DNA of 64,000 nucleotides from Hyphomonas sp. Lineage in GTDB: Bacteria > Pseudomonadota > Alphaproteobacteria > Caulobacterales > Hyphomonadaceae. This document shows positions 5,137 through 21,716 of the stretch, in pieces. Positions within the stretch are counted from its first letter, which is position 1. Every line of letters starts with the position of its first letter. The stretch covers positions 4,327 through 68,326 of the forward strand of contig NZ_JBBKXE010000048.1 in the NCBI RefSeq assembly GCF_037969335.1. The letters are read 5' to 3'. The position numbers and the translations under genes are program-made. Below the pieces are notes generated by a model, which saw only the letters and a program-made list of their open reading frames with translations, made no database searches and had not been told where the DNA came from.

Positions 5137-5240
5137 ACGCTAACATTATTCACGCCAAGCCCTTTCTCGCGCGGCTGCGCGATCCCGCCCGGACATCAGT
5201 CGGGCGGCAAGAATGAGGCGTTGGGGCTGGGCGCCGGGTG

Positions 5241-6227
5241 TCAGGTTGGCGTTTTGAGGGCGGCGATCGCCAATGCGATATCCTGGAGCTTATCGCCATT
5301 GGAGGGGGCGAGCATGCCTTCGCCTTCTGCGACTTCAAGCTGCTTCGCATCATATGCCCAGCGTCGGAGCAGCTCCAGTTTGATGGCGTCTGAGAAACGC
5401 GCGGCCAGAAGCTTCTCGATAGTATGAAATGTGTTGGCGGGATCGATCAGGGCCGCATTCAGATCAATTTTTTCAGAACGCGCTGATGCATAGAGGGATT
5501 CGAGATACCTCAATCGTTCGACATAGGATCTCGCCTCATCGGCGTTTGAGAATACCTTGCCCGAAACATAATATTCATCGTCGCCCGAGTGGACAAAACC
5601 GGTATCGCGATAGGCGTCGGCTTCGGCTGCCGAAATCGCCCCAAGATAGCGGTCCTCCAGGACCGGGTGCAGGTCCGGCAGGCCATGCAAGTGCACGTCT
5701 TGCCCGGAATGGGCTTTCAGAATCTTGGTCGCGCGGGCTTCATCCCCTTCATTCCAGGTGCGCACCCACAAAGTCAGGCCGCCATGCTCGACCTGATCGG
5801 CGATGTATTCGGCGTGCTCACCACCGATGATTCTTGCCAGGGCGGCACCGAGCGCGGCGCCACTGCCGCCGCCAACGAGAAGCGCAACCAGTCCGGCCGC
5901 CAGGGCCCCGCCGGATGCGACGACCGGGATCAGGCCCGCCAGCGCGCCGACATACATCAACGTTCCAATGACGGCACCCTCGGCATTGCCGACATCTTCC
6001 TCGGCGACGTAAGCGATCCGGGGCGCAGCCGTATCGTCCTCGACCTCGGCCACTTTCCGGTAGGCATGGCCCAATTTCTGCTCAACACTATCGGAGCGCG
6101 CAAGCAGGCTGATCTCTGCCCGGTCAAAACCATGCGACAGCAGGTCATCAATGGCCGCCTGGAGCGTTTCTTCGGTCTGAAAAACGCCGACGGCTTCGCG
6201 GGCAGGTAGAGGGCTCGGTTGAGTCAT
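5241..6227 (-). CDS. General-stress-protein-like membrane protein with an extra C-terminal domain
   Basis: EAVGVF...AIDDLLSHGFDRAEISLLA, Gly/Ala-rich TM hairpin, GGLTLWVRT; GGAG SD. Confidence 0.65.
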   Translation of the reverse strand: MTQPSPLPAREAVGVFQTEETLQAAIDDLLSHGFDRAEISLLARSDSVEQKLGHAYRKVAEVEDDTAAPRIAYVAEEDVGNAEGAVIGTLMYVGALAGLIPVVASGGALAAGLVALLVGGGSGAALGAALARIIGGEHAEYIADQVEHGGLTLWVRTWNEGDEARATKILKAHSGQDVHLHGLPDLHPVLEDRYLGAISAAEADAYRDTGFVHSGDDEYYVSGKVFSNADEARSYVERLRYLESLYASARSEKIDLNAALIDPANTFHTIEKLLAARFSDAIKLELLRRWAYDAKQLEVAEGEGMLAPSNGDKLQDIALAIAALKTPT

Positions 6228-6249
6228 GACGGTACTCCTGTTCGCCCGA

Positions 6250-6277
6250 AGCCTAGCTGAGGCAATGGATATGTCAA
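6250..6277 (-). promoter_or_regulatory. Sigma70-type promoter
   Basis: Minus strand TTGACA-16 nt-TAGGCT upstream of 6227. Confidence 0.55.
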
Positions 6278-6505
6278 AAACGACCGGTAGCGACCTGGAG
6301 CCGCATCCCTGAAGTCATCATGCCCGATTTTGAATCTGGCCGCTTCGGCTGTTCCCCTGTGGTTGCAGCGATTGGCAGCGAGTTAGGGCGCCTATTTGCC
6401 CGATCTGAATAGCAGCCGAGGTAAATGTTTGTACACGTTTCCCACCCAGCGTTGCGAAAATCTGTTGCGCCCGATGCATTCGGGGGCCGTGAAACGAGAG
6501 CTGTG

Positions 6506-8824
6506 ATGAACACTCCTACGACATTCTGGCGCGATCTGTTTCCAGGTTCCCTTCGAAACAGGATCATCGTGCTTGCCTGTTGCGTGTCGCTCCTGACGTC
6601 GATCGCGCTAGGTGTGCTGCTGGTGATGCGTACCACCAGCATTTCCTACGACTTGGCCGTCGAAAACGTCGCGCATGAAACGCAACTGGTCGCACTCGAC
6701 TTCAAGTGTGCGTACAATGAAATCGAGAATGACGCCTTTGTCATCTCTCGGACGCCGCCGATCCAGGGGATGCTGCGGAGTGCGGAATCTAATCACATCG
6801 ACCCCCGCGACGGCTCTACGACAGATCAATGGCGTGAGCGCCTGGAGGCCATCTTCGCATCGATCATGAATGCGCGGACCAGCTACACACAGATCCGCTA
6901 TATCGGTGCCCACAATGACGGCAGGGAGCTGGTGCGCGTCAACCGGCATGATGACGGATTTGAAATGGTCCCGGTATCCCTCCTGCAGACGAAATCCGAG
7001 GAATCCTATTTCCAGAAAGCGCTGACGCTTGAGCCGGGCGAGGCCTATTTTTCAAAAGTGACCTACAACCGCGAGCTTGGACAGCTTGATAGCGAACTCG
7101 TCCCTACGCTCCGCGTCGTCGTACCGATATTCGATCTGGACGGAGAAATCTTCGGCATGGTCGTCATCAATGCCGACTATGCCGCCATGCTTCGCAGACG
7201 CTTCGAGGCGATAAATATCACCCGCAATATCATCGTCTCGAATGAATCGGGCGACTATATGGAGCAGCTTTCCGACGGTACGGTGGCTGACCTTCGCTAC
7301 CATAATGGCGGATCGGGTGAGGGCGACGAGCTGCTTGCGGCGCTGCTTCCCGGAAAAGAGCGCGGGTCGGATTCATGGGTCGCAAGGACCGGTGACGAAC
7401 TCATTTATTCTGTGCGAATGCCGATCAGCGAACGGCTCGACGATTCGCATCTGATCATGTCGATACGCGTTCCGAACGACGAATTGTTTGCAGGGGCCAA
7501 CCAGATCAGGAAGGAAGGCATCCTGCTCGCCCTTTTGCTCATTGCGCTTTCGCTCGGGGCTGCCGCCTGGGCTGCGACAGAGCTAACAGGGCCGCTATTG
7601 CGCATGACCCGATCTGTCCGAGAGGCGAGCCATTCAGGCGATGTTCCCGATCTTCCGGTCGGCCGGGATGATGAAATCGGAGAGTTGGCGGTCGCTTTCC
7701 AGTCTCTCGCCCAGAACCTGACCGGAAGCGAAGCGCAAATCCGGGCGATCTTCGGTAATGTCGTGGATGGCGTCTTTACCGTTGACGAGGCCGGCGCCAT
7801 TCAGAGTTACAATTCGTCCTCGGAGCGAATGTTCGGATTTCCGTTCGAAGACGTCATAGGACAGGACATTGGCCTGTTGATGCCGGACGAAATTTTCACG
7901 CAATATGATCGTCGGCTCAACGAGGCCCGGGAGTCGGGCGCGGAGGACACGATAGGTGTCACGTGTGAGGTGGTTGGGAATCGGCAGGATGGTTCTGTAT
8001 TTCCGATGGAGGTGTCGGTCAGCAAGGTCGATGCCGGCGGGCAGATCATGTTTGTCGGGATTGTTCGCGACATTACCGAACGCAAACAGATGGACACTAT
8101 CAAGAGCGAGTTTGTGTCGACAGTGAACCACGAACTGCGGACGCCGCTGACGTCGATTCAGGCCGCCTTGGGGATATTGCAGAAAATGCTGCAGGGTAAG
8201 GTCGGACCCAAGGAAGAGCGCCTGCTTGATATCTCGCTGGAAGGCACGCAGCGACTTGGCCTGCTCGTCAATGATATCCTGGACGTCGAGAAGATTGCGG
8301 CCGGGAAAATGGAATTCTATCCGGAGACCTGCGAAATGGTCGGGTTGGTGACCGATATCGTGGAGCGTCACCAGAGCCTGGCCGAGAAATACCGCGTCAT
8401 CTTCCGTCTCGACACGCAGATTCCGAACGCCCATTGCCGGGTGGACCCATCCCGCTTCAATCAGGCGCTTGTGAACCTGCTGTCCAACGCGGCCAAATTT
8501 TCGCCTGAAGGTGAACCCGTTGGCATCGAGATCGCGGAGCAGGCAGACAACCGCATTCGGATATCGGTTTCTGATACCGGCCCTGGCATTCCAGCCGCGT
8601 TCCGGAACAAGATTTTCCAGCGATTTGCACAGGCTGACAGTTCGGCAACACGTTCGACCGGCGGATCCGGGCTGGGACTGAACATCACCAAAACGATCAT
8701 CGAAACGCTCGATGGCGAGATTTCATTCGAGAGCGTTGAGGGGCAGGGGACGACGTTCACGATCGTTCTTCCAACCTGTGCCAATGCGGAGAAGACGGGA
8801 GATACCAAATGGCAGGCGGCCTGA
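6506..8824 (+). CDS. Membrane sensor histidine kinase (periplasmic Cache-like, HAMP, PAS, HisKA, HATPase)
   Basis: Two TMs, HAMP RDDEIGELA, PAS, H-box VNHELRTPL, N-box NLLSNAAKF, DTGPGI, GGSGLGL. Confidence 0.93.
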   Translation: MNTPTTFWRDLFPGSLRNRIIVLACCVSLLTSIALGVLLVMRTTSISYDLAVENVAHETQLVALDFKCAYNEIENDAFVISRTPPIQGMLRSAESNHIDPRDGSTTDQWRERLEAIFASIMNARTSYTQIRYIGAHNDGRELVRVNRHDDGFEMVPVSLLQTKSEESYFQKALTLEPGEAYFSKVTYNRELGQLDSELVPTLRVVVPIFDLDGEIFGMVVINADYAAMLRRRFEAINITRNIIVSNESGDYMEQLSDGTVADLRYHNGGSGEGDELLAALLPGKERGSDSWVARTGDELIYSVRMPISERLDDSHLIMSIRVPNDELFAGANQIRKEGILLALLLIALSLGAAAWAATELTGPLLRMTRSVREASHSGDVPDLPVGRDDEIGELAVAFQSLAQNLTGSEAQIRAIFGNVVDGVFTVDEAGAIQSYNSSSERMFGFPFEDVIGQDIGLLMPDEIFTQYDRRLNEARESGAEDTIGVTCEVVGNRQDGSVFPMEVSVSKVDAGGQIMFVGIVRDITERKQMDTIKSEFVSTVNHELRTPLTSIQAALGILQKMLQGKVGPKEERLLDISLEGTQRLGLLVNDILDVEKIAAGKMEFYPETCEMVGLVTDIVERHQSLAEKYRVIFRLDTQIPNAHCRVDPSRFNQALVNLLSNAAKFSPEGEPVGIEIAEQADNRIRISVSDTGPGIPAAFRNKIFQRFAQADSSATRSTGGSGLGLNITKTIIETLDGEISFESVEGQGTTFTIVLPTCANAEKTGDTKWQAA

Positions 8825-9216
8825 ACAGAATTCTCTATGTGGAAGACGATCCGATCATCGCCGAGCTGGCGGGCATGGTGTTGACGACATTTGGTGGATT
8901 CGACGTGCGTCATTGCGCGTCCGGGGCCGACGCGATTGCGGCGTTTCCCGAATTTTCTCCGCAGATGCTGCTGCTGGATGTGATGATGCCCGAAATGGAT
9001 GGGCCCCAGACCCTGCAGAACATCCGATCCATGCCGGGTGGCGATGCCATTCCGGCGGTCTTCATGACGGCGCGGGTCCAGGTGCACGAGCGCGAGTCGT
9101 ATATGCAGCTGGTTGCGGTGGGGGTCATTCCCAAACCGTTCGATCCGATGACGCTGTCCGATCAGATAGCCGAGATGTGGCGTCTCAGTTCTGCGGTGGC
9201 TTTCCAGGACAGCTGA
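8809..9216 (+). CDS. Single-domain response regulator
   Basis: YVEDD, LLDVMMPEMDG, FMTA, KPF; overlaps the kinase stop. Confidence 0.92.
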   Translation: MAGGLNRILYVEDDPIIAELAGMVLTTFGGFDVRHCASGADAIAAFPEFSPQMLLLDVMMPEMDGPQTLQNIRSMPGGDAIPAVFMTARVQVHERESYMQLVAVGVIPKPFDPMTLSDQIAEMWRLSSAVAFQDS

Positions 9217-9252
9217 GCCTGAGGCCATCAGCGCGTAAAAAATGTCACGCGG

Positions 9253-9266
9253 ATGACAAGGATCAA
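9253..9266. promoter_or_regulatory. FNR/FixK-like box
   Basis: ATGAC-AAGG-ATCAA, centred 41.5 bp upstream of ATG 9301. Confidence 0.55.
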
Positions 9267-9300
9267 TTTGCGTGCGGCGAAGCCGTGCTTTCTTGCATCC

Positions 9301-9855
9301 ATGAAAATCGAACCTGAAATATCCTATCGAAACATTGAGCCGTCCCAGCAATTGCAGGAGCGGATCAACAAGGAAATCCGCCAGCTCGAAAAAATTGACC
9401 CGGAGCTGATCTCCTGCACGGTTCTGGTGGACGGCCCGAGCGGGCACAAACATGCGGGCGGACTGGCATCGGTCCGGATCCACCTGACGGCCCCGGGCCG
9501 CAAGGATATTGCCGTCACACACGTGGCCGACGACAATCATGCGCATGAGGACGTCCTGGTCAGTGTCCGGGATGCGTTCAAGGCCGCCCAGCGACAGATC
9601 AAGAAGCTCAAGCCTGACCACAGGGCCGAAGGGGCTGGTGACGACACGCGGGTCGCCGGCAAGATCGCGCGGTTCCTGGCCGAGGAGGGGGCGGGGTTCA
9701 TTGTCGCCGAAGACGGGCAGGACTATTACTTTCAGGCCCGCTCGGTCACCGATGCGCAGTTCAAGGCGCTGAAAGTCGGCGACGATGTTACGTTCAGGGT
9801 CGAGCCGGGCGACAAGGGCCCGCAGGCGGTTGCCGTTCACCTGCGCGGCGATTGA
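9301..9855 (+). CDS. HPF/RaiA-family ribosome-associated protein fused to a cold-shock domain
   Basis: ISYRNIEPS...VRIHLTAPG...VRDAFKAAQRQ, then GAGFI...YYF...LKVGDDVTF...GDKGPQA. Confidence 0.88.
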   Translation: MKIEPEISYRNIEPSQQLQERINKEIRQLEKIDPELISCTVLVDGPSGHKHAGGLASVRIHLTAPGRKDIAVTHVADDNHAHEDVLVSVRDAFKAAQRQIKKLKPDHRAEGAGDDTRVAGKIARFLAEEGAGFIVAEDGQDYYFQARSVTDAQFKALKVGDDVTFRVEPGDKGPQAVAVHLRGD

Positions 9856-9877
9856 GCGACAGGAAAAGGAACCTCAT

Positions 9878-10306
9878 ATGTTTGTAAGAAATTTCGACCT
9901 CATTCTCGACCCGGCCGACGCGATGCAGATTGCCATGCTGGTGCGCGAGTTCGACACGGAGGATATCGATCCGACGGGCGAGGAATATTCGGGCGATGAG
10001 GCCTTCGCAGACGAGGAGGACCTGCTCGAACAGGAGGAGAAGGACCCGGCTGATCCGGCGCTGGACGCGCTTGGCGCTGCCGTCAATCTCCTGAATGTCG
10101 ATGCGCAGCGAGACTTGCTCGCGCTGATGTGGGTGGGGCGCGGTGACTACAGGCCCGAGGACTGGGCGACAGCGCGCCATCAGGCCACCGATGTCGCCGA
10201 CATGCATCTGGCCAAGTATCTTGCAGAGACGCCGCTCGCGAGCACGTACCTCATCGAGGGACTGAGCCAGATGGGCTATTCCGTCGATGATTACGAGGCC
10301 TCCTGA
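9878..10306 (+). CDS. DUF3775 protein
   Basis: Acidic; LNVDAQRDLLALMWVGRGDY...W...YL.ETPLASTYLIEGL. Confidence 0.82.
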   Translation: MFVRNFDLILDPADAMQIAMLVREFDTEDIDPTGEEYSGDEAFADEEDLLEQEEKDPADPALDALGAAVNLLNVDAQRDLLALMWVGRGDYRPEDWATARHQATDVADMHLAKYLAETPLASTYLIEGLSQMGYSVDDYEAS

Positions 10307-10328
10307 AGCGGGAAGAGGGAGAAGAACG

Positions 10329-11099
10329 ATGGGAATGGTTGACGGAAAGAGCGCTCTGATCACGGGTGCCGGAGCGGGCATCGGGCGCGCAACGGCGCTC
10401 AAGTTCGCAGCCGAAGGCGCTCGTGTCGCCGTGTCGGACGTGAATGTCGAAGGCGGCGAGGAAACGGTTCGCCTGATCGAGGCAGTTGGCGGCGAGGCCT
10501 TCTTCATGCGGGCCGACGTATCGCAGGCCAAGGAGGTCGAGGCGCTGATCAAGCAGACGGTCAAGACGTTCGGTAGGATCGATTGCGCCTGCAACAATGC
10601 CGGGATTGAAGGGACCATTGCGCCGTTCGCAGAGCAGACGGAAGAGAATTTCGACCGGATCATTTCGGTCAACCTGAAGGGCGTCTTCCTGTGCCTGCGC
10701 GCAGAGATACAGCAGATGGTCAAAACTGGCGGCGGGGCAATCGTCAATCTCGCCTCGGTTGCCGGCCTTGTCGGATTTGCGGGCCTCAGCCCCTATGTGG
10801 CGTCAAAGCATGGCGTGAACGGCCTGACGAAGAATGCCGCGCTTGAATATGGCAAGGCAGGTATCCGCGTGAATTCGGTCTGCCCCGGCGGGATTGATAC
10901 AAGGATGCTGGATTCGCTCGCAGAGCAATCGAGCGACGGGAAGATGACGTCCCGCGACATGCTCGATCCAATGCACCCGATCGGGCATATCGGTACGCCG
11001 GAGGAAGTGGCCGAACTGATCGTCTGGTTGTGCTCGCCGCGCGCGTCTTTCGTCACCGGCGCGAACATCCCGGTCGATGGCGGCTTCGTGGCGCAGTAG
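10329..11099 (+). CDS. Short-chain dehydrogenase/reductase
   Basis: TGAGAGIG, NNAG, YVASK, VDGG. Confidence 0.93.
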   Translation: MGMVDGKSALITGAGAGIGRATALKFAAEGARVAVSDVNVEGGEETVRLIEAVGGEAFFMRADVSQAKEVEALIKQTVKTFGRIDCACNNAGIEGTIAPFAEQTEENFDRIISVNLKGVFLCLRAEIQQMVKTGGGAIVNLASVAGLVGFAGLSPYVASKHGVNGLTKNAALEYGKAGIRVNSVCPGGIDTRMLDSLAEQSSDGKMTSRDMLDPMHPIGHIGTPEEVAELIVWLCSPRASFVTGANIPVDGGFVAQ

Positions 11100-11113
11100 G
11101 CAGCCGCGCGGTC

Positions 11114-12403
11114 TCAGATCAGTCCGATGGCCGCTGCGACGCCCAGGCCTGCTGCGCCCGCCAGCGCCATGAACACCGCGACAGCCATGCATTGGTGCCT
11201 GTAGGCGCCTTCACCCGCGACCAGTGCAATCGTGCCCTTCAGCAGCGTATTGGCGATCGCAGCCAGTGCGACGGCGATGGCGGCGGTTTCGGTGCTCAGT
11301 CCTTTCGCGCTCATCTGGATCATGGAGAGGCTGATGGCATCCACATCTGCGGCGCCCGCCACAAGGGCGACGCCGTAAATCCCTGTCGGCCCCAGCATGT
11401 CGGCGGCAGCCCTCGACAGAAGGAGCGCCGTCGCCAGAAGGGCCGCGAAGAATAGTGCCGACCTGACGTCGAGGGGGTTGGACAGGACGAGGTCCGGCGC
11501 GGCCTGTGTTCCCCGGCGCAGGAGGAAAATTGCAGCAATGGCCAATGCGACAACCAGCATGGACCCGAATGGCAAGGCGAGGGGGGCGACGAGTGATGGT
11601 GCGAAGGCGCCGAGAATAAAAGCGGTCCGGACGATCATGCCGGCCCAGGCCAGGGCCGTGCCTCCGACCAGGGCGCGCGCATCGCCCGCGTCGTTCCGGC
11701 TGAACCGCGCAAAGGAAAGGGTCACGGCGGTTGATGAGGCAAAACTGCCCGCGAGTGCCAGCAGTCCGATGCCGCGCCGGCTCCCCAGCCATTTGACGCC
11801 GAGATAGCCGACAAACCCCAGGCCACTGATCAGGACGACCATCCACCAGATCGCGCGCGGATTGAACGCGTCATAGGGCCCGTAGGCCTGGTCGGGCAGT
11901 ACGGGCAGGACGACGACCGAGATCAGCAACTGGCGGAGGAAAGCGCTGAGTTCCTTTTCCTCGATCCGGTGCAGCAGGGCGTGAAGGGGTGTTCTCAGCC
12001 AGAGCACGAATGCCACGATCACGGCCCCGGCCGCGGCTGCCTGGGAATGGCCGAGCACCGCCACGGCGCCGAGTGCATAGGCGCTGAGCGCGGCCACCAT
12101 CGTCGTGACACTGACGATGCGGGTAACATCAATCTGGGCTTCGAACCCTTCCCGCAAGAGCAGCGCGAGCGCGACAAAGCCGGCCGCGATGACAAAGCCA
12201 TTTCCCGTATCGACAAGGGCGCACAAACCGCCCAGAAATCCGATCAGTCCGATGGTCCGGAACCCGGCAACGCGCGAGCCGTCGGGATCGGCCCGATCTT
12301 TCCAGCCGCGCTCCAGCCCGATCAGCAAGCCAATGCCGAGCGCAGTCAGCAGACCGGTGAGGGGCGTCTCAGGTATCATCGGGACATATCCGGGACCATC
12401 CAT
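11114..12403 (-). CDS. MgtC/SapB + DUF4010 membrane protein
   Basis: IGLLIGLER, AGFRT, WWMVVLISGLGFVGY, SSTAVT, ADVDAISLS; start may be 12379. Confidence 0.85.
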   Translation of the reverse strand: MDGPGYVPMIPETPLTGLLTALGIGLLIGLERGWKDRADPDGSRVAGFRTIGLIGFLGGLCALVDTGNGFVIAAGFVALALLLREGFEAQIDVTRIVSVTTMVAALSAYALGAVAVLGHSQAAAAGAVIVAFVLWLRTPLHALLHRIEEKELSAFLRQLLISVVVLPVLPDQAYGPYDAFNPRAIWWMVVLISGLGFVGYLGVKWLGSRRGIGLLALAGSFASSTAVTLSFARFSRNDAGDARALVGGTALAWAGMIVRTAFILGAFAPSLVAPLALPFGSMLVVALAIAAIFLLRRGTQAAPDLVLSNPLDVRSALFFAALLATALLLSRAAADMLGPTGIYGVALVAGAADVDAISLSMIQMSAKGLSTETAAIAVALAAIANTLLKGTIALVAGEGAYRHQCMAVAVFMALAGAAGLGVAAAIGLI

Positions 12404-12423
12404 TCAGCAAGGAGCAGGCAGCA

Positions 12424-13620: not shown

Positions 13621-14561
13621 GGCGCACTCGCCTTCCAGGCGAGGTAGCACTTGGCCAGCGCGCAGGAGGCCAGCCGCTCTCTCACGCTGTCGGACCGGCT
13701 GGTCAGGATGATCGGAACCTGAGCGCCGACAACCAGGCCCGCGGCGGCGGCGCCGGCCAGGTAGTCGAGTTGCTTGGCGAGCATGTTGCCGGCCTCGATA
13801 TCCGGCACGATGAGAATGTCGGCGTCGCCAGCGACATCGGAGACCAGGCCCTTGATTTTTACGGCCTGTTTCGAGACAGCCAGATCGAAGGCGAGTGGAC
13901 CATCGAGCACACCGCCGGTGATTTGCCCCCGTTGGGCCATCTTGCAGAGCGCGGCTGCGTCGACGGTCGTCGGCATGTGGGGATCGACCTCTTCGGTGGC
14001 AGCCAGGATCGCCGTCTTCGGGGAGTCTATTCCGATGGCATTGGCCACGTCGATGGCGTTCTGGACAATCCATCTCTTGGTGTGCAGGTCCGGCGAGATA
14101 TTCAGGGCGCCATCGCTGATGAGCAGGTATTTCGGATAAGCGGGGGTCTGCATCACGAAGACATGGCTCATCCGGCGGTCGGTGCGCAGGCCGGTATTGC
14201 GGGCAACAATGGCTGCCATCAGTTCGTTTGTGTGCAGGGCGCCTTTCATCAGCGCCTGTACCTTGCCGGCCCGGGCGAGTTCGACGCCCGTCTGGGCGGC
14301 GGCGTGGCTGTGCGGTGTGTCGATGATCTCGGCGCCTGCCAGATCGAGACTGAATTGATCTGCTGCCGCGCGAATGCGCTGCTCCGGCCCTATCAGGACC
14401 GCCTTGATCAGACCGGTCGCCTGCGCGTCGAGAGCAGCCGCAAGGGCATTCTGGCTAACGGGGTGAATAACCGCCGTCGCTATCGGGGCGCCGTCTGCGC
14501 GTGAGAGGATTGACGCGAAGGCGTCGTGCGGATCGCCTTGTTCGGCGCTGCTTTGAGTCAT
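13617..14561 (-). CDS. Phosphate acetyl/butyryltransferase
   Basis: LMKGALHT, RMSHV, DGPLAFDLA, AGNMLAK, PIILTSRSD; overlaps the ackA start. Confidence 0.9.
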   Translation of the reverse strand: MTQSSAEQGDPHDAFASILSRADGAPIATAVIHPVSQNALAAALDAQATGLIKAVLIGPEQRIRAAADQFSLDLAGAEIIDTPHSHAAAQTGVELARAGKVQALMKGALHTNELMAAIVARNTGLRTDRRMSHVFVMQTPAYPKYLLISDGALNISPDLHTKRWIVQNAIDVANAIGIDSPKTAILAATEEVDPHMPTTVDAAALCKMAQRGQITGGVLDGPLAFDLAVSKQAVKIKGLVSDVAGDADILIVPDIEAGNMLAKQLDYLAGAAAAGLVVGAQVPIILTSRSDSVRERLASCALAKCYLAWKASAP

Positions 14562-14605
14562 TGGACGAGTGCCCCATCGTGGTTGGCGTTCATTCGCCCG
14601 CCTTA

Positions 14606-15325
14606 TCAGTAACCGACCACGGACGCGTATTCTTCTTCGGTGGGTTCGCCAGCGGCGGCAATGAGGCGCTTGCGGTCAGATATCCGGATTCGGTTCGACT
14701 GTGGCAGTTCAATGATCCCTTGCCGCTTCAGCTGGTTCATCATGCGGCTGACTGTCTCCAGTGTCAGCCCGACATAGTCGGCCATGTCGCAGCGACTCAT
14801 CCGGATATCGACAAAGCTCGTCGCGGGGTCTGCGAAGCGGCTGTCGAGGAAGAGAAGAAAGGTTGCCGTGCGTTCCATCGCGCATTTGCGCCCGAGCAGA
14901 AGGGCTTGCTCGCGCGAGGCATTCAGCATGTCCCCGATCAGGGTGAAGATGCTCCGGCGAAATACGGCATTGTCTTGTAGTGCGCGATCAAAACTGGCTC
15001 GGGCGATGAAGTCGACCTCGACATCTGTCAGGGCTTCAGCACTGAGATTGTGAATGTCGGCGAAGGTCAGCGCGAGGAAATCTCCGTCGCTAGAAAAATC
15101 CTGAATCTGACGGCGCCCATCGGCCATGAGCTTGTAGAGGATTACCGTGCCGGAAATGATCTGGAACACGCCGGTCGGCTGGTCTCCCTGGAAGAACAGA
15201 TGCTCGTGCGGCGCAAAATGCAGCCTGTTTCGCGGCACACCATGCTCGTCCCTGTGCGCATGTGATGCGCGGACGCCCGCAGAGCGTGCAGCAGTAGGGA
15301 GTTGAAGAATGGTGTGAGCGGTCAT
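14606..15325 (-). CDS. fixK: Crp/Fnr regulator, FixK type
   Basis: DGRRQI; HTH SRCDMADYVGLTLETVSR (FNR-type ExxSR); no N-terminal Cys cluster. Confidence 0.8.
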   Translation of the reverse strand: MTAHTILQLPTAARSAGVRASHAHRDEHGVPRNRLHFAPHEHLFFQGDQPTGVFQIISGTVILYKLMADGRRQIQDFSSDGDFLALTFADIHNLSAEALTDVEVDFIARASFDRALQDNAVFRRSIFTLIGDMLNASREQALLLGRKCAMERTATFLLFLDSRFADPATSFVDIRMSRCDMADYVGLTLETVSRMMNQLKRQGIIELPQSNRIRISDRKRLIAAAGEPTEEEYASVVGY

Positions 15326-15407
15326 TTTCTACCTCCTGTGTTTTGGGCTGGGTCACCCGTTCGGCCTCTCCCAGACAAGATGGAGCACCACGCGAAAATT
15401 GAATTGC

Positions 15408-15417
15408 GGGAAACTAC
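15408..15417 (-). promoter_or_regulatory. Putative FixJ binding site
   Basis: Minus strand GTAGTTTCCC, 83-92 bp upstream of the fixK-like start; matches the rhizobial FixJ site as recalled. Confidence 0.45.
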
Positions 15418-15575
15418 CTAGAAGACGCCGTATTGATCAAAGCGACGTGTGCCATCGAAGGATTCATAGGCGCGAGACGCGCAAGATCCGGGTTCCGGTG
15501 CCGGCCGAAGGGGCACACCAAGGGTGGCAGGCACGCAAGGCCCTTCGTGACATACGGAGGGTGATGGCGCTGTGC

Positions 15576-15589
15576 TTGAGCGAGATCAA
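15576..15589. promoter_or_regulatory. FNR/FixK box
   Basis: TTGAG-CGAG-ATCAA (1 mismatch), upstream of the WXXGXW gene. Confidence 0.7.
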
Positions 15590-15656
15590 CCTGCCCGGCA
15601 ACGGTCCGGTATAGGGATGATGTGCGACGTCGCAAGCCCGTGGAGGAGATCAGGTA

Positions 15657-16001
15657 GTGCCATTGAAATCAAAGGCGATACCCTTCTTGCTGGGCGCCTG
15701 CGCCTTGGCAGTAGCGGGCTGCGCCACACATTCTCATCCTTATTATCGGCATGGGCCGGTCACGCCCGATATCAGCATCGTTTATGTTCGCTCGGCGCCA
15801 CCGCCACCGTGACGGGTTCATTTGCCTCCGCGGCCTTCTGCGACGGCAGTCTGGGTCGACGGATACTGGAGCTGGACGGGGGTGAGGTTCGCCTGGGTCG
15901 ATGGTTTCTGGGAGCCACATCCACATAGCCGCGTTTGGGTGCCCGATAGCTGGGTGCATACCAATCGTGGATGGTATCGCCGCCCGGGGCGCGGGAGATA
16001 G
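15657..16001 (+). pseudogene. WXXGXW(YXWGXW)-repeat lipoprotein interrupted by an in-frame TGA at 15810-15812
   Basis: Manual translation: MPLKSKAIPFLLGACALAVAGC-ATHSHPYY...APPPP*RVHLPPRP...VWVDGYWSWTGVRFAWVDGFWE...WVPDSW...GWYRRPGRGR; GGAGGAG SD. Confidence 0.8.
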
Positions 16002-16014
16002 GGCGCAGCGGAGC

Positions 16015-16028
16015 TTGATGGAAATCAA
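16015..16028. promoter_or_regulatory. FNR/FixK box
   Basis: Perfect TTGAT-GGAA-ATCAA. Confidence 0.85.
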
Positions 16029-16089
16029 GCGTCCGGTCGCCAGACCGTCTCTTATGGGATATCCAATCAGGGAACAGGAGGCAGTTGCC

Positions 16090-16527
16090 ATGAAGCTGAA
16101 AAACGGAACTTGGGTACTTGTATGTGACAGCGGCAAATTCCTGCTGCTCGAAAACAATGGCGACGAGGATATCATGGACCTGCGCGTGGTCGCACATGAT
16201 GAAGCCGTCAATCCAGCGACCAGCGACCAGGGTACGGATCGGCCAGGACGGTTCGCGATCTCGCCGGACCGGCGCGGAACGACCCAGGAGACCGACTGGC
16301 ACCAACTCGAGGAGACCCGTTTCGCCCAGGACCTGGCAGAAAAGCTCGGCCGGTGGGAAAATAACAAGCGCTTCAACGATCTTGTTATCGTGTCCGACAG
16401 CCGAACGCTCGGCGTGTTGCGGAGCGCGCTCTCAGACCAGGTGAAGAAGCGGGTTCGCGGTGAAGTCCAGAAGGATTATGCCCATCGCACGATCGAGTTC
16501 ATCGAGACGGCACTCGCGAAAGAATAG
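16090..16527 (+). CDS. Host attachment protein (AtsE-like / baeRF12 family)
   Basis: TWVLVCDSGK.LLLEN.G, TDRPGR, DWHQLEETRFA, LVIV....LGVLR..L, EVQKD; AGGAGG SD. Confidence 0.85.
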   Translation: MKLKNGTWVLVCDSGKFLLLENNGDEDIMDLRVVAHDEAVNPATSDQGTDRPGRFAISPDRRGTTQETDWHQLEETRFAQDLAEKLGRWENNKRFNDLVIVSDSRTLGVLRSALSDQVKKRVRGEVQKDYAHRTIEFIETALAKE

Positions 16528-16554
16528 GTCTGGTTTCGATCAGCGGGTTGCGGC

Positions 16555-17463
16555 TCATGTCCGGGATGGTCTGGCCGTCTTGAGCAGGCTGGACGTGGCG
16601 TCTGCCAGAATGCCGCTCACATCAATGGCGTTGCTTGGATGGGAAATGGTGTTGCTCGTTACTATACGGGCGGCACCAGCTTCCAGCAGTGCTTCATGCG
16701 CGCCATCGGCAAAAATACCATGCACCGCGCAGCATGTCGGGGGACGAAGACCCTGCTGGACGAGCTGACGCGTCACCGCAATCATGGTGGAGGCCGTTGA
16801 GATCGTGTCATCGACAATGACCGGTGTGTGATGGCGCCATTTTTCCAGATCGGGAAGCGAGATGTCCACGTCCCGGTCGCCATGCCTCGTCTTGGTCAGG
16901 ACGATATGATCCACGCCGGCCAGCGCAGCGATTTCCGAAACCCATTGCTCGCTTTCCGCATCCGGGCCGATCAGGAGGGGGGTGTCGATTTCCTGCCTGA
17001 TCCATGCGGCCATTGCAGGCGCGGCATGGGCCGCCACGGAAGGGATGTCGTAAATGTCCGATAGCGCCTTCCAGCGGTGCAGGTGGGGATCGGTTGTGAC
17101 GAGCCAGTCGACGCAGGACGAGACCCATTTCGCAAAATGCACGGACGTGATCGCCTCGCCCGGCTGGAACATCTTGTCCTGGCGCATATAGGGCAGGTAG
17201 GGCGCGACCAGCCCGACTGATTTGGCGCCAAGAGCGCGGGCTGTCTGCGCGGCAAAGGCAAGCGCAGGCAGCTTTGAATCGGGTTGGGAGAGGCCCGCAA
17301 GCAGGACGACGTCGCGCCCTTCCGGCGGCGTGTCGAAGCGCAGGTAGGTTTCGCCATCGGGAAACCGGCGCAGGTCGATTTCAGCCGTCTCCGCACCAAG
17401 CGCGCGGGCCAGAGGGGCGGACATCTGCGCGGTATCCTGCAGGGGCATCAGGAGCGGCTTCAT
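16555..17463 (-). CDS. Ribose-phosphate pyrophosphokinase-like protein
   Basis: FPDGE, PYLPYMRQDK, DPHLH, GPDAESEQW, VDDTISTAST. Confidence 0.9.
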   Translation of the reverse strand: MKPLLMPLQDTAQMSAPLARALGAETAEIDLRRFPDGETYLRFDTPPEGRDVVLLAGLSQPDSKLPALAFAAQTARALGAKSVGLVAPYLPYMRQDKMFQPGEAITSVHFAKWVSSCVDWLVTTDPHLHRWKALSDIYDIPSVAAHAAPAMAAWIRQEIDTPLLIGPDAESEQWVSEIAALAGVDHIVLTKTRHGDRDVDISLPDLEKWRHHTPVIVDDTISTASTMIAVTRQLVQQGLRPPTCCAVHGIFADGAHEALLEAGAARIVTSNTISHPSNAIDVSGILADATSSLLKTARPSRT

Positions 17464-18992
17464 GGTTTGGTCAATTCGATGATGTCCGGATTGGCCATGA
17501 CATAGTCGATGACGTAGGCGAGTTCGCCGGGAGTCTCCGTATAGAGCGTATAGAGCGGCTGCCCGCCTTTGACCCTGTCGCCCAGCCTGACATGGAGATC
17601 AAGACCGGCGGTCTTGTCGCCGGGCGCGCCTGCGAGTTTGGCGGCCCGGGCGAGGTGCCGACTGTCGATGCAGGTCACCCGGCCGGGAGCTGGCGCCAGG
17701 ACAGGGCGGCTGTGTTCCGCAAGGGTCGGCTCTCGAAATCCACCCTGGGCGCGGCAGATGGCTTCGAACTTGGTGTAGGCTGCTCCGCTGCGGAGCACGT
17801 TCAGTGCCATGGCCTTGCCCGCTCCCGCATCGGCCTTGCCGACAAGTTCAAGCAGGGCCCCGGCGATCAGGCAGGCGCGGTCTGCAAGATCGGCAGGGGC
17901 ATCCGGATCGTTGCGCAGGACGCCGAGAATATCACGCGCTTCGAGCGCGGGGCCGATGCCGCGCCCGACCGGCTGGGTGCCGTCGGTGACGAGGGAGAGG
18001 ACTTTCAGGCCGAATTCAGCGGCGACCTTTTCAAGAAGGGATTGCAGGGACAGGGCAGCGGCCTGGCTGCGGACCTTGGCTGTGGGCCCCACCGGAATGT
18101 CGATCACGACATGGGTGGCGCCGGCGGCGATCTTCTTTGACAGGACGGATGCGACGAGCGCGCCCTCGCTGTCGAGATCCAGCGCGCGCTCGATCCGGAT
18201 CAGGGCATCGTCAGCGGGACTGAAATGCATGCCGCCGCCCCAGACGAAACAGCCGCCTTCTTGGTCAACGACCCGCCGCATGCTTTCAAGATCGAGGTCG
18301 ACATCGGTCAGGACTTCCATCGTGTCGGCGGTGCCGGCGGGCGACGTGATCGCGCGGGACGATGTTTTCGGGATGGTCAGGCCGAGCGAGGCGCAGATCG
18401 CCACGACAATAGGTGTTGTCCGGTTGCCCGGCAGGCCGCCGACGCAATGCTTGTCGGCAATGGGCATGCGGTCCCAGGTCATCCTGCTGCCGGTTTCGAC
18501 CATGGCGCGGGTGAGGGCGATGGTTTCGGTTACGTCCAGTGGCAGAGCCGAGCATGCGGTGACGAAAGAGGACAGATGGATGTCCGAATAGCGCCCTGCG
18601 ACAATATCAGTGATGATGGCCAGCGTGCCAGCTGCGTCGAGCCGCTGGCCGAACACTTTGCCCCGAACCGTTTTGAGCGACTCGAGCGGCGCAGGATGGC
18701 TGATGGAAATCTCGCAACCATCGACAAGACCGAGCAGGCGCCAGGCGGCCTCCGACAGGCCGATCTCCTGATCGGAAACGAGGTCGGTCGATGTCTGGTA
18801 TAGCGTGGCGATAATGGAGCAGGTGCCATTGGTCAGCTCGACACGGGAATGCGCGGAAAACCCTTCGGATCGGCAGACAGGACTGTCTGCCTGAACGAAG
18901 GCCATGGCTTCATGCTGGGTATCAAGCCCGAGCCGCCGCGCGGTCAGCACATTGGTCAAGGTTGGCGGGCCCGGAGGTTGCGCGTCCATCAA
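17460..18992 (-). CDS. Thymidine phosphorylase family, archaeal-type AMP/NMP phosphorylase-like
   Basis: N-terminal extension, DKHCVGGLPGNRTT, KTSSRAITSPAGTADTMEVL, SKKIAAG, QPVGRGIGPALEA. Confidence 0.9.
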   Translation of the reverse strand: MMDAQPPGPPTLTNVLTARRLGLDTQHEAMAFVQADSPVCRSEGFSAHSRVELTNGTCSIIATLYQTSTDLVSDQEIGLSEAAWRLLGLVDGCEISISHPAPLESLKTVRGKVFGQRLDAAGTLAIITDIVAGRYSDIHLSSFVTACSALPLDVTETIALTRAMVETGSRMTWDRMPIADKHCVGGLPGNRTTPIVVAICASLGLTIPKTSSRAITSPAGTADTMEVLTDVDLDLESMRRVVDQEGGCFVWGGGMHFSPADDALIRIERALDLDSEGALVASVLSKKIAAGATHVVIDIPVGPTAKVRSQAAALSLQSLLEKVAAEFGLKVLSLVTDGTQPVGRGIGPALEARDILGVLRNDPDAPADLADRACLIAGALLELVGKADAGAGKAMALNVLRSGAAYTKFEAICRAQGGFREPTLAEHSRPVLAPAPGRVTCIDSRHLARAAKLAGAPGDKTAGLDLHVRLGDRVKGGQPLYTLYTETPGELAYVIDYVMANPDIIELTKP

Positions 18993-20353
18993 GCGAGATT
19001 CTGCGTTTCATTGTGTTCAGGCACGATAACGGACCAGCCCAGTTCTTCCTCGATCCGGTGACGAAGGGCATCGGCGGCGTCCGGCTCGCCATGGACGATG
19101 AAGGTCTGCTTCGGCGGTGATTCAAAGCCGCCCAGCCAGTGCATGATTTCATCCGCGTCGGCATGCGCCGAGAGCATGTGCAGGGTGGCGACTTCGGCGC
19201 GCACGTCATGGTACTCGCCGTGGATCTTGATCCGGTCAATTCCGGCGACCATGGCGGCGCCCCGCGTGCCGCCTGCCTGGAACCCTGCAAACAGGACGGA
19301 GTTGCGGGCGTCCGGCGCATAGAATTTCAGGTGGTGCAGGACCCGGCCGCCGGTCGCCATGCCGCTCGCCGCGATGATGATCTTGGGCATCTGGTCATAG
19401 TCGAGGGCCTTGGAGTCTTCGCTATCATGAACATATTTTGCGACATGGCATGTGTTCAGGCTCTGCGTCTTGCTGAGCTTGTGACAATAGGCATGCTTGC
19501 AGAAGAGTTCGGTGGCATCGATTGCCATCGGGCTATCGAGATAGACGGGCAGGTCCGGAATGCGGTTGGCCGCTTTCAGCTCGTGGAGGTGGTAGAGCAG
19601 TGTCTGGGCGCGCCCGACAGCGAAGGACGGAATGAGCACTGTGCCGCCGCGCTTGGCCGTCCGGTTGATGATGTCGGCCAGCGCATCCTGCGCATTGCGC
19701 GCGCCATGCTGGCGGTTGCCATAGGTCGACTCGACGAGCAGGTAGTCAGCCTGCCGGATAGGTGCAGGATCATACATGATCGGGTCGTTCGGGCGACCGA
19801 GATCCCCCGAAAAGACGATCTTGCTCGTCGGCGCCTGGAGCTCGACAATGGCCGCGCCGAGGATGTGGCCGGCAATCCGGAATGTCGCGGACACGTCCTT
19901 TGCCACGCTGGTCGGTGCGTCGAAGGGCGAGGTGTCAAACATTTCGAGTGTTCGATTGACGTCTTTCTCGCCATAGAGCGGCAAGGCGGGCTTGTGCTTT
20001 GAATAGCCATAGCGATTGGCGCGCTCGGCTTCGCGCTCCTGCAAGTAGGCGCTGTCGGGCAGCAGGATTCGGCAAAGGTCATAGGTTGCTTCGGTGCAAT
20101 GTATCTTGCCCCTGAAGCCATTCTTGACGAGGACAGGCAGGTAACCGGAATGGTCGATATGCGCATGGGTCAGGACCACGGCGTCGATGGTTGCCGGATC
20201 GACCGGCAGGTCTTTCCAGTTTCGCAGGCGCAGCTGCTTGTAGCCCTGGAACAGGCCGCAATCGACCAGGATGCGCGCCTCGCCCGTGTCGACCAGGTAT
20301 TTTGACCCGGTCACCGTACCAACGCCGCCGAGGAACTTGAGTTGAAGTGTCAT
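18989..20353 (-). CDS. MBL-fold beta-CASP ribonuclease
   Basis: GTVTGS, DCGLFQG, THAHIDHSG, AGHILG, FSGDLG, ESTYG, PSFAVGRAQ, ASGM..GGR, SAHAD, VHGE. Confidence 0.92.
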   Translation of the reverse strand: MTLQLKFLGGVGTVTGSKYLVDTGEARILVDCGLFQGYKQLRLRNWKDLPVDPATIDAVVLTHAHIDHSGYLPVLVKNGFRGKIHCTEATYDLCRILLPDSAYLQEREAERANRYGYSKHKPALPLYGEKDVNRTLEMFDTSPFDAPTSVAKDVSATFRIAGHILGAAIVELQAPTSKIVFSGDLGRPNDPIMYDPAPIRQADYLLVESTYGNRQHGARNAQDALADIINRTAKRGGTVLIPSFAVGRAQTLLYHLHELKAANRIPDLPVYLDSPMAIDATELFCKHAYCHKLSKTQSLNTCHVAKYVHDSEDSKALDYDQMPKIIIAASGMATGGRVLHHLKFYAPDARNSVLFAGFQAGGTRGAAMVAGIDRIKIHGEYHDVRAEVATLHMLSAHADADEIMHWLGGFESPPKQTFIVHGEPDAADALRHRIEEELGWSVIVPEHNETQNLA

Positions 20354-20484
20354 GTGTCGGCTTCCTCGGTGACCGTATCGGCAAGGGTGGACTGCGCGCA
20401 ACGCATCCGCTTGAAATCAGGCTATCGCATGTGACCTTGCAAAAGGGACGCATGCAACCCTGTCGTATCGCGTTGGGGGTGGCG

Positions 20485-20943
20485 CTAGAGACCGGCGATG
20501 GGCGTGGTGCGGATGGAGGCCTTGCCCAGATCCCGGATCGGCTTGGGGAGCGCCTGCAGCACATTCTCGATTTCGCCGGGTGAAATATACATGCTGAGCA
20601 CTTCAAACACGGCAGCGGTGACCGCGTCGGCTTTGACGCCGGGAAAGTTCCTGAACGCGTCTGCAATCGGCGCGAGGAAGGCCTCCAGCGATCTGTCAGT
20701 TGGGCGCTCTGACCCGGGCGACCAGCCTTCGAAGAATATGCCGCGCACGATCAACGGCATCTGCGATGAGAAGTTCGCGGCCAGCGGCACCGGCAGCCGG
20801 TCGCGAATTTCATGCATTACGACCTTGAGGGCCTGATGAGCCTGGGCAGGTTCGGTCCACGCGAGAACCTCCATCACATCCTTCAGCCATACATTGGCCG
20901 TCTGGAGCGCCTCGTCGAACTGGTGCAAACTTGTGTGGGTCAT
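20485..20943 (-). CDS. DUF2267 protein
   Basis: ANVWLKDV...VMHEIRDRL...QMPLIVRGIFFEGW...ISPGEIENV..ALPKPIR. Confidence 0.85.
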   Translation of the reverse strand: MTHTSLHQFDEALQTANVWLKDVMEVLAWTEPAQAHQALKVVMHEIRDRLPVPLAANFSSQMPLIVRGIFFEGWSPGSERPTDRSLEAFLAPIADAFRNFPGVKADAVTAAVFEVLSMYISPGEIENVLQALPKPIRDLGKASIRTTPIAGL

Positions 20944-20974
20944 CGTGTAATTCCGCCCGGTAGGCGGCCTCCCT

Positions 20975-21475
20975 CTAGTCGGACTTGATAGCGATTTTTT
21001 TCGCTGGCTGCCGGGCTGTTTCGGATTTCGGCAATGTGATCGACAAAACGCCCTTCTTCAGCGTTGCGTTGACTTTCGCGGCATCGACTTCGCACGGCAG
21101 GGGCACGTGCCGCTCGAAGGTGCCGTAGGCGCGCTCCATGCGATGGAAGTTCTTGCCCTTTTCTTCCTTTTTCTCTTCGCGCTTGCCTTTGATCATCACG
21201 CCCGTGTCGGTCAGGCTGATGTCGATATCCTTGCGGTCGATTCCCGGTAGGTCGAGGACAAGTTCGATTGCGTCATCGGTCTCGCTGACGTCGAGGTCTG
21301 TAGGGAGGGTGAATGCCTGTCCGCCATTGGCGCGACCAAATGCGGGCAGCGCCGGAATATAGCTGCTGAAAAGGTCGTCCATCTCTGCTTTCAGCTGGGA
21401 AACGGGATCATGACTGCGCAGCCATCCGAATGGCTGGCTCGGTGTGCGGTCTTCCTTCTTTTGCAAACTCGTCAT
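20975..21475 (-). CDS. Hsp20/alpha-crystallin small heat-shock protein
   Basis: DLPGID, ERAYGTFER...LP, ATLKKGVLSITLPK; GAGGAG SD. Confidence 0.95.
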   Translation of the reverse strand: MTSLQKKEDRTPSQPFGWLRSHDPVSQLKAEMDDLFSSYIPALPAFGRANGGQAFTLPTDLDVSETDDAIELVLDLPGIDRKDIDISLTDTGVMIKGKREEKKEEKGKNFHRMERAYGTFERHVPLPCEVDAAKVNATLKKGVLSITLPKSETARQPAKKIAIKSD

Positions 21476-21557
21476 TTTTCAACTCCTCAATCACAGTAAA
21501 TCTTACGTGCCATCGTTCGATGCCAAGTCACTTTACGCCGCGAGGTCGACGTGCTGA

Positions 21558-21571
21558 TTGATTGGAATCAA
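21558..21571. promoter_or_regulatory. FNR/FixK box
   Basis: Perfect TTGAT-TGGA-ATCAA upstream of the hsp20 run. Confidence 0.85.
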
Positions 21572-21716
21572 GTCGGGTGGAGTCCTGCTTTTCCGTGATG
21601 CGCGCCAATAAATTTGAGCTTATCGCATGGGCACGGTTGCCTGACCGTGTGTCTCCCTGCCAATGTCGTTCGCAGGCCGGACAAGACACCGGCATCATGC
21701 CAACCCGGAGGCAAAA

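Follow-up and report, generated by a model that had tools for sequence, protein, structure and literature searches.

The 64 kb stretch of Hyphomonas sp. DNA analysed here (the window) belongs to a draft assembly of 3.17 Mb that is 89.6% complete. From about position 9250 to 21580 it carries a dense group of genes arranged around that of a FixK-type Crp/Fnr regulator. This segment is probably a regulon island for low-oxygen survival in a Hyphomonadaceae genome. Gene families were assigned with Pfam and NCBIfam profiles; these profiles confirm every family that an earlier model-made reading of the letters (the sequence-only reading) had named. A canonical FNR/FixK box is defined as TTGA-N6-TCAA. 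The genes and boxes of the cluster are as follows:

9253-9266: variant box ATGACAAGGATCAA (ATGAC-N4-ATCAA), centre 41.5 nt before the HPF-CSD ATG
9301-9855, plus strand: fusion of HPF/RaiA (S30AE) and a cold-shock domain, HPF-CSD (Pfam PF02482, 2.9e-12, and PF00313)
9878-10306, plus strand: DUF3775 protein, directly after HPF-CSD, with a Shine-Dalgarno sequence before its ATG (Pfam)
10287-11099, plus strand: short-chain dehydrogenase, SDR (Pfam; NCBIfam PRK06172 above cut-off)
11114-12403, minus strand: MgtC/DUF4010 membrane protein, final gene of the fixK-pta-ackA string (Pfam)
12424 to about 13602 (start approximate), minus strand: ackA, acetate/propionate kinase (Pfam; TIGR00016 above cut-off)
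13617-14561, minus strand: pta, short-type phosphate acetyl/butyryl transferase (Pfam; NCBIfam PRK11890 above cut-off)
14606-15325, minus strand: FixK-type Crp/Fnr regulator (Pfam PF00027, PF13545, PF00325)
15576-15589: box TTGAGCGAGATCAA, centred 74.5 nt upstream of the lipoprotein GTG and 251 nt away from the start of fixK
15657-16001, plus strand: YXWGXW-repeat lipoprotein gene, probable pseudogene (start GTG; in-frame TGA)
16015-16028: perfect box TTGATGGAAATCAA, centred 68.5 nt upstream of the baeRF12 ATG
16090-16527, plus strand: baeRF family 12 / Host_attach protein, baeRF12 (Pfam PF18856, PF10116)
16555-17463, minus strand: accessory archaeal-type PRPP-synthetase-like (PRS-like) protein (NCBIfam PRK07199)
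17460-18989, minus strand: archaeal-type AMP-phosphorylase-like nucleoside/nucleotide phosphorylase (TIGR02645 above cut-off)
18989-20353, minus strand: beta-CASP metallo-beta-lactamase RNase (Pfam Beta-Casp, RMMBL, Lactamase_B)
20411-20424: TAGCCTGATTTCAA, a degenerate vestige of a box found upstream of beta-CASP in relatives
20485-20943, minus strand: DUF2267 protein (Pfam)
20975-21475, minus strand: Hsp20/alpha-crystallin (Pfam)
21558-21571: perfect box TTGATTGGAATCAA, centred 89.5 nt upstream of the hsp20 ATG

The window contains exactly three canonical boxes, starting at 15576, 16015 and 21558, where 0.53 are expected; none of 100 shuffled sequences reaches three. All three are intergenic and lie inside the cluster, with none in the remaining 47.6 kb of the window; the whole genome has 30. 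The distances from their centres to the start codons fit class II FNR-type promoters with leaders of 27-48 nt. The sequence-only reading had counted four boxes of the type TTGAT-N4-ATCAA. Three of these are canonical and confined to the cluster, but the fourth, before HPF-CSD, differs from that pattern at two positions and is not significant alone, though it is conserved in two relatives. It is letter-identical in loci L071 and L072 despite diverged flanks, and always stands 41.5 nt before the ATG; this geometry is possibly compatible with a leaderless mRNA.

The nearest public relatives are metagenome-assembled genomes labelled Hyphomonas, Hyphomonadaceae or Alphaproteobacteria. Two related genomes, G401 (loci L001 and L072) and G402, are 83-88% identical to the window in nucleotide sequence, and the boxes stand out as phylogenetic footprints at this distance. 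In both genomes the genes from HPF-CSD to hsp20 keep the order of the window, and all the boxes are present. The baeRF12 box is identical in L001 and L003; the lipoprotein box keeps its half-sites in these loci while its spacer varies. Homology to the relatives stops at 21579, just beyond the hsp20 box. Apart from the lipoprotein gene, no open reading frame of the cluster is interrupted, and identity to the relatives is 74-97%. Between the lipoprotein box and fixK the relatives carry an extra 3 kb (L001 13437-16404) that encodes a Lon paralogue (798 aa) and a phasin-like protein (132 aa), each behind a TTGA-N6-TCAA box of its own. Neither a second Lon nor the phasin-like gene was found in the window genome, which has only the housekeeping Lon (43% identity). 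The HPF-CSD/DUF3775 pair is also kept in a third genome, G403, at 53% and 44% identity.

The regulator combines a cyclic-nucleotide-binding-like domain with a Crp-type helix-turn-helix. It had been described as Cys-less. Its only cysteines are Cys148 and Cys179; there are none in residues 1-147, so the FNR-type N-terminal Cys cluster is indeed missing, but the protein as a whole is not free of cysteine. Among solved structures it matches Bradyrhizobium FixK2 best (4I2O, 4e-36), compared with 1e-16 for FNR and 1e-12 for DNR. The recognition helix GLTLETVSR, of the E--SR type, is identical to that of FixK2, and a serine occupies the position aligned with FixK2 Cys183. The regulator can be classed as FixK-type but not as a Caulobacter-FixK equivalog. 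The only other Crp/Fnr protein of the host lacks the E--SR helix. As previously described, pta, ackA and DUF4010 follow the regulator on the same strand, giving the minus-strand order fixK-pta-ackA-MgtC/DUF4010; pta and ackA probably depend on the fixK promoter.

A FixLJ-to-FixK cascade is plausible in this genome, since FixT-like, FixJ and FixL-like (haem-PAS) genes lie on contig C36 (L057 1694-6896), divergent from ccoN-ccoO and beside ccoNOQP. Genome-wide reconstruction from the 30 boxes gives few convincing further targets, chiefly a gene encoding a tandem universal stress protein (USP) on contig C119 (861-3272, L058). Its canonical box lies 55 nt before the start, and an XdhC-like gene is divergent from it. 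Of two Usp matches in the genome, this is the boxed one; it lies on a different contig from the cluster. Both families of the C119 pair, USP and XdhC-like, appear in published FNR/FixK regulon predictions.

Gene set and boxes also recur at much greater distance, in shuffled combinations. The phosphorylase is present in 47 of 401 sampled Pseudomonadota genomes. Around 20 distant phosphorylase loci, a PRS-like gene lies within 20 kb in 17 and a beta-CASP gene in 10; ackA (with pta in one case), DUF4010 and baeRF12 recur nearby. Box enrichment was judged against 11 composition-matched control palindromes: these 20 loci hold 24 canonical boxes against 0-5 for each control. The boxed neighbours include USP and CBS-domain proteins, an FtsH-like protease and cytochromes c. 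These loci are hypoxia islands like the lxa locus of Burkholderia cenocepacia, which is compared below. The 29 distant HPF-CSD loci (L075-L103) hold 17 boxes against 0-2 for the controls, and eight of them have a box no more than 250 nt upstream. DUF2267, hsp20, beta-CASP or PRS-like genes stand beside HPF-CSD in several of the 29 loci, DUF2267 adjoining in three. The recurrence on which the sequence-only reading had staked its proposal is found both in the two close relatives and in distant Proteobacteria.

Individual loci show further combinations. In L045 and L055, baeRF12 homologues are boxed at a spacing of 60-68 nt; in L041, beta-CASP, phosphorylase, pta and ackA form one co-directional array. 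MgtC/DUF4010 also adjoins the trio of beta-CASP, phosphorylase and PRS-like genes in L037 and L044. L037 belongs to a complete genome of the same genus, G124, which provides a natural control. There baeRF12, DUF4010, beta-CASP, phosphorylase, PRS and DUF3775 are clustered, but no FixK orthologue was found in the genome and no canonical box in the 20 kb of the locus.

FixK wiring and a hypoxia programme, as put forward in the sequence-only reading, are on this sequence evidence well supported: the FixK2-identical helix, the conserved and regularly spaced boxes, their enrichment at distant loci and the G124 control all point this way. This support does not extend to the left third of the region then outlined (5241-9238), where no box was found before the YflT-like, histidine kinase or receiver genes.

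Two parts of the cluster merit a closer look. HPF-CSD has a cold-shock domain as its C-terminal half and lacks the C-terminal dimerisation domain of long HPF. Both domains are annotated in all but one of 89 database relatives (the exception has the cold-shock domain only). A full-length fusion occurs in about 55 of 401 sampled alphaproteobacterial genomes; 70 of the 401 match at E <= 1e-15, in some cases only across the HPF part. The fusion is a common alphaproteobacterial architecture. Nothing relevant was found in the literature linking FixK to hibernation factors or to the HPF-CSD fusion. In L075-L103, HPF-CSD often follows an FNR-type box at -60 to -117 and has a normal Shine-Dalgarno sequence. 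The -41.5 geometry without a Shine-Dalgarno sequence is seen only in the lineage of the window.

The trio genes overlap end to start, the phosphorylase gene sharing ATGA and TGATG junctions with its two neighbours. At most of the 20 distant loci the phosphorylase and PRS-like genes are direct neighbours. The best solved relative of the phosphorylase is the Thermococcus kodakarensis AMP phosphorylase (4GA5, 9e-100), and it shares the N-terminal extension of the enzymes of the archaeal AMP phosphorylase/pentose-bisphosphate pathway, with Tk-AMPpase closest. It differs in its AMP_phos equivalog score (458, below the cut-off of 535) and in being paired with a PRS-like protein and a beta-CASP RNase instead. 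The best PDB match of the PRS-like protein is M. jannaschii PRS; a housekeeping PRS is separately encoded on contig C7. Neither the ribose-1,5-bisphosphate isomerase family (PF01008) nor RuBisCO (PF00016) was found in the 89.6%-complete genome. The low equivalog score, the missing isomerase and RuBisCO and the separate PRS together suggest that the phosphorylase/PRS-like pairing belongs to an uncharacterised nucleotide-ribose route; no literature on this pairing was found. A more specific and rather doubtful proposal is that the trio is an uncharacterised bacterial route from RNA to ribose-1,5-bisphosphate and phosphoribosyl pyrophosphate (PRPP), or to central carbon, switched by an FNR-family regulator together with HPF-CSD, baeRF12 and Pta-AckA. 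If this were true, oxygen-starved aerobes would survive by silencing some of their ribosomes and consuming others.

Among the closest known systems is the lxa locus of Burkholderia cenocepacia, which is low-oxygen-activated, has Anr-related CRP regulators and carries TGA-N6-TCA before many of its genes (Sass et al. 2013, PMC3721108). On induction, hsp20 rises 240-fold, acetate kinase 75-fold, phosphate acetyl/butyryl transferase 116-fold and a metal-dependent RNase 30-fold; the locus also encodes a Zn protease and two-component systems, and it supports anoxic survival of an aerobe (PMC3721108). Both loci have the motif before several units and a Crp/Anr-like regulator inside, and hsp20, pta, ackA and a metal-dependent RNase are common to both, matched by family name only. 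They differ in that lxa has about 50 genes, with six USPs dominant and with polyhydroxyalkanoate synthesis, class II ribonucleotide reductase, ribokinase and cytochromes, whereas the window cluster has 12-16 genes and no USP, and adds HPF-CSD, baeRF12, DUF2267, DUF3775 and the phosphorylase/PRS pair.

In Bradyrhizobium diazoefficiens, FixLJ and FixK2 control a microoxic regulon (Mesa 2008; Fernandez et al. 2019, PMC6515984). The genes bll3115-3117, encoding an MBL-fold (metallo-beta-lactamase) hydrolase, a ribose-phosphate pyrophosphokinase and a member of the thymidine-phosphorylase family, respond to microoxia with higher transcript and protein levels; host-attachment proteins are also induced, and one of them, bll5315, is a direct FixK2 target (PMC6515984). 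The recognition helix, host-attachment proteins and MBL/PRS/phosphorylase trio are thus shared with the window, and the FixK2 regulon also includes USP, CBS and Hsp proteins. However, the Bradyrhizobium genes are scattered over 8-9 Mb and those of the window are packed around the regulator; in addition, the trio is not scored as a direct FixK2 target there. The predicted FixK regulon of Alphaproteobacteria contains Hsp20, CBS, XdhC-like, alcohol dehydrogenase and ABC/HlyD genes (Dufour et al., PMC2908626).

The sequence-only reading had presented operation as one system, convergent with the DosR regulon of Mycobacterium tuberculosis, as its new claim. An FNR-wired, DosR-like survival locus is already a published concept and not a new one, because the lxa paper (PMC3721108) and the Bradyrhizobium microoxic data (PMC6515984) precede it; the lxa authors explicitly likened their locus to the DosR regulon in 2013, and Dufour et al. 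(PMC2908626) had predicted Hsp20. In part following PMC3721108, DosR resembles the cluster as a hypoxia survival set with an alpha-crystallin, a hibernation-type factor and PRTase-fold (phosphoribosyltransferase) proteins. The DosR regulator itself is of NarL type, works with the haem-GAF kinases DosS and DosT and recognises another motif, whereas the window has a Crp/Fnr regulator and a response regulator that is receiver-only. The comparison can be read as an analogy of function only.

Control of pta and ackA by an FNR-family regulator has a precedent in Pseudomonas aeruginosa, where pyruvate fermentation through ackA-pta is Anr-dependent. The likeness lies in this control and in ATP supply for anoxic survival without growth. 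The window differs in that pta and ackA lack a box and apparently share a transcript with the regulator gene. A link between Anr and USP in P. aeruginosa is cited in PMC3721108.

The cluster is real, conserved and FixK-box-wired, of the lxa-type or FixK-regulon-island sort, and slightly decayed in this genome. It is the equivalent of lxa in Alphaproteobacteria, a set of co-regulated genes rather than a demonstrated single pathway. A mechanism can be proposed on this basis. When oxygen falls, the FixL-like haem-PAS kinase and FixJ, encoded beside ccoNOQP on contig C36, would raise transcription of the cluster fixK. FixK, which has no oxygen sensor of its own, would bind TTGA-N6-TCAA at about -41.5 and activate four units: hsp20-DUF2267, probably continuing into beta-CASP-phosphorylase-PRS; baeRF12; the lipoprotein gene, now with a stop codon; and HPF-CSD-DUF3775-SDR, from the variant box and possibly as a leaderless mRNA. 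The pta-ackA-MgtC/DUF4010 genes would be carried on the fixK transcript.

The products may jointly shut down and protect the non-growing cell. Ribosomes would be the target of HPF-CSD and baeRF12, and Hsp20 would hold unfolded proteins. The nuclease, the nucleoside monophosphate (NMP)/nucleoside phosphorylase and the accessory PRS could recycle the ribose and bases of RNA, and Pta-AckA could make ATP from acetyl-CoA. Most of a FixK-type hypoxia response would then be gathered around its regulator in about 12 kb. HPF-CSD, baeRF12, DUF2267, DUF3775 and the trio have a recurrent FNR-box linkage across Proteobacteria and are biochemically uncharacterised; the cluster is a handy candidate map of how strict aerobes may stop translation and recycle RNA when oxygen ends.

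A number of observations weigh against a FixK-driven low-oxygen island. Gene families and boxes are observed, as are their conservation and recurrence, whereas the response to oxygen, binding by FixK, the operons and all the biochemical roles are inferred for this organism. No Usp domain was found within the cluster, and USPs are a hallmark of the lxa and DosR sets. The regulator scores 150 bits against the 300 required by the NCBIfam Caulobacter-FixK equivalog. The HPF-CSD box has its TTGA core broken on one side, pta and ackA lack a box, and the only box upstream of ccoN, TCGATTCGGATCAA, has one mismatch and stands some 420 nt away from the first ccoN start codon, in the fixL-ccoN interval. 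Because the window has only a degenerate box in front of beta-CASP, the trio would have to be induced by transcription reading through from hsp20 over a gap of 131 nt; no terminator was found in this gap in a promoter/terminator scan that performed at chance level. Finally, this copy shows decay: the lipoprotein gene contains a nonsense codon, and the Lon paralogue and phasin-like gene of the relatives have been lost.

These signs of decay could mean that the cluster is a remnant whose programme no longer works in the host genome. The truncated GH3 gene next to it and the degenerate beta-CASP box would fit such a loss, as would the lipoprotein stop codon and the genes missing relative to G401 and G402. 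The remaining reading frames are intact and close to those of the relatives, however, three boxes and the regulator are intact, and single-base errors are possible in a draft assembly; a defunct programme is thereby improbable. A general stress or stationary-phase response, run by sigma-EcfG/PhyR or by another signal such as nitric oxide or redox state, with the boxes bound by another regulator or not linked to oxygen, seems very improbable. Hsp20, YflT-like, HPF and cold-shock proteins are classical general-stress products, FixK carries no sensor itself, and an unrelated sensor kinase and receiver lie inside the cluster. But the sigma-EcfG promoter GGAAC-N16,17-CGTT was not found anywhere in the window, the only E--SR-type Crp/Fnr protein of the genome is that of the cluster, the kinase and receiver are missing from G401, and the orthologous modules of Bradyrhizobium and Burkholderia are low-oxygen-responsive.

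A third possibility makes the products a single integrated pathway from ribosome to ATP. Ribosomes would be parked or split by HPF-CSD and baeRF12, and RNA would be degraded by beta-CASP; the resulting NMPs would pass through the AMP-phosphorylase-like and PRS-like enzymes to ribose-1,5-bisphosphate and then PRPP or ribose-5-phosphate, and on to acetyl-phosphate, from which Pta-AckA would give ATP. Such a route would parallel the archaeal pentose-bisphosphate pathway in a bacterium, and without RuBisCO. The overlap of the phosphorylase and PRS-like genes and their adjacency at most distant loci, the archaeal AMP phosphorylase as closest solved relative, the PRS as an extra paralogue alongside the housekeeping one, and the L041 array all favour it. 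Against this, the bacterial proteins have no known enzyme activity, the phosphorylase falls below the AMP_phos cut-off, the isomerase and RuBisCO were not found in the incomplete genome, and PRPP-synthase chemistry does not obviously accept ribose-1,5-bisphosphate. The gene sets also recur shuffled, which suits a regulon better than a pathway of fixed composition. A single pathway is therefore unlikely, and a FixK-controlled regulon island for low-oxygen survival is preferred to all three alternatives.

The left flank of the island contains four further genes:

3685-5136, minus strand: GH3 remnant with GH3_C, PA14 and Fn3-like domains only (Pfam); left neighbour, outside the regulon
5241-6227, minus strand: YflT-like glycine-zipper membrane stress protein (weak YflT match, below cut-off)
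6425-8824, plus strand: periplasmic-sensor/HAMP/PAS histidine kinase (Pfam, NCBIfam)
8809-9216, plus strand: receiver-only (stand-alone) protein (Pfam, NCBIfam)

The gene inventory of the sequence-only reading was correct in its families but its summary omitted the PAS histidine kinase and the receiver. These two genes fall within an indel of about 3 kb (window 6229-9238) that is missing from G401, where blastn blocks of L072 place the YflT-like gene directly against HPF-CSD. The YflT-like gene accompanies the cluster in G401; the protein adjoining HPF in L072 is 86% identical to that of the window. No terminal repeats, tRNA or RNA family were found at the cluster borders.

The GH3 gene had been described as broken, and it is: the catalytic N-terminal domain is gone, while the native start codon and about 35 nt upstream are kept (window 3685-5170). 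In G402 an open reading frame with a GH3 N-terminal domain adjoins HPF and runs off the end of the locus; the 35 nt immediately 5' of its start match window 5136-5170. Since the 5' half is in place in G402 and the start region is retained in the window, the defect is explained by an internal deletion. Insertion of the cluster into GH3 as an island was considered and rejected on the same grounds.

In the lipoprotein gene, an in-frame TGA at 15810-15812 takes the place of an Arg codon of the L001 orthologue; the FixK box ahead of the gene is still present. The gene was also considered as frameshifted, but codon-by-codon reading and comparison with L001 show TGA replacing Arg. The TGA reflects a recent nonsense mutation or else an error of the assembly.

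Relative G401 carries a further box beyond hsp20. In its right flank (L001 250-2949) this box directly precedes a dienelactone-hydrolase/PRTase fusion, and an erythromycin-esterase-like gene follows; a search of the window genome found neither. The architectures of these flank proteins resemble those of the DosR-regulon proteins Rv0571c and Rv2030c.

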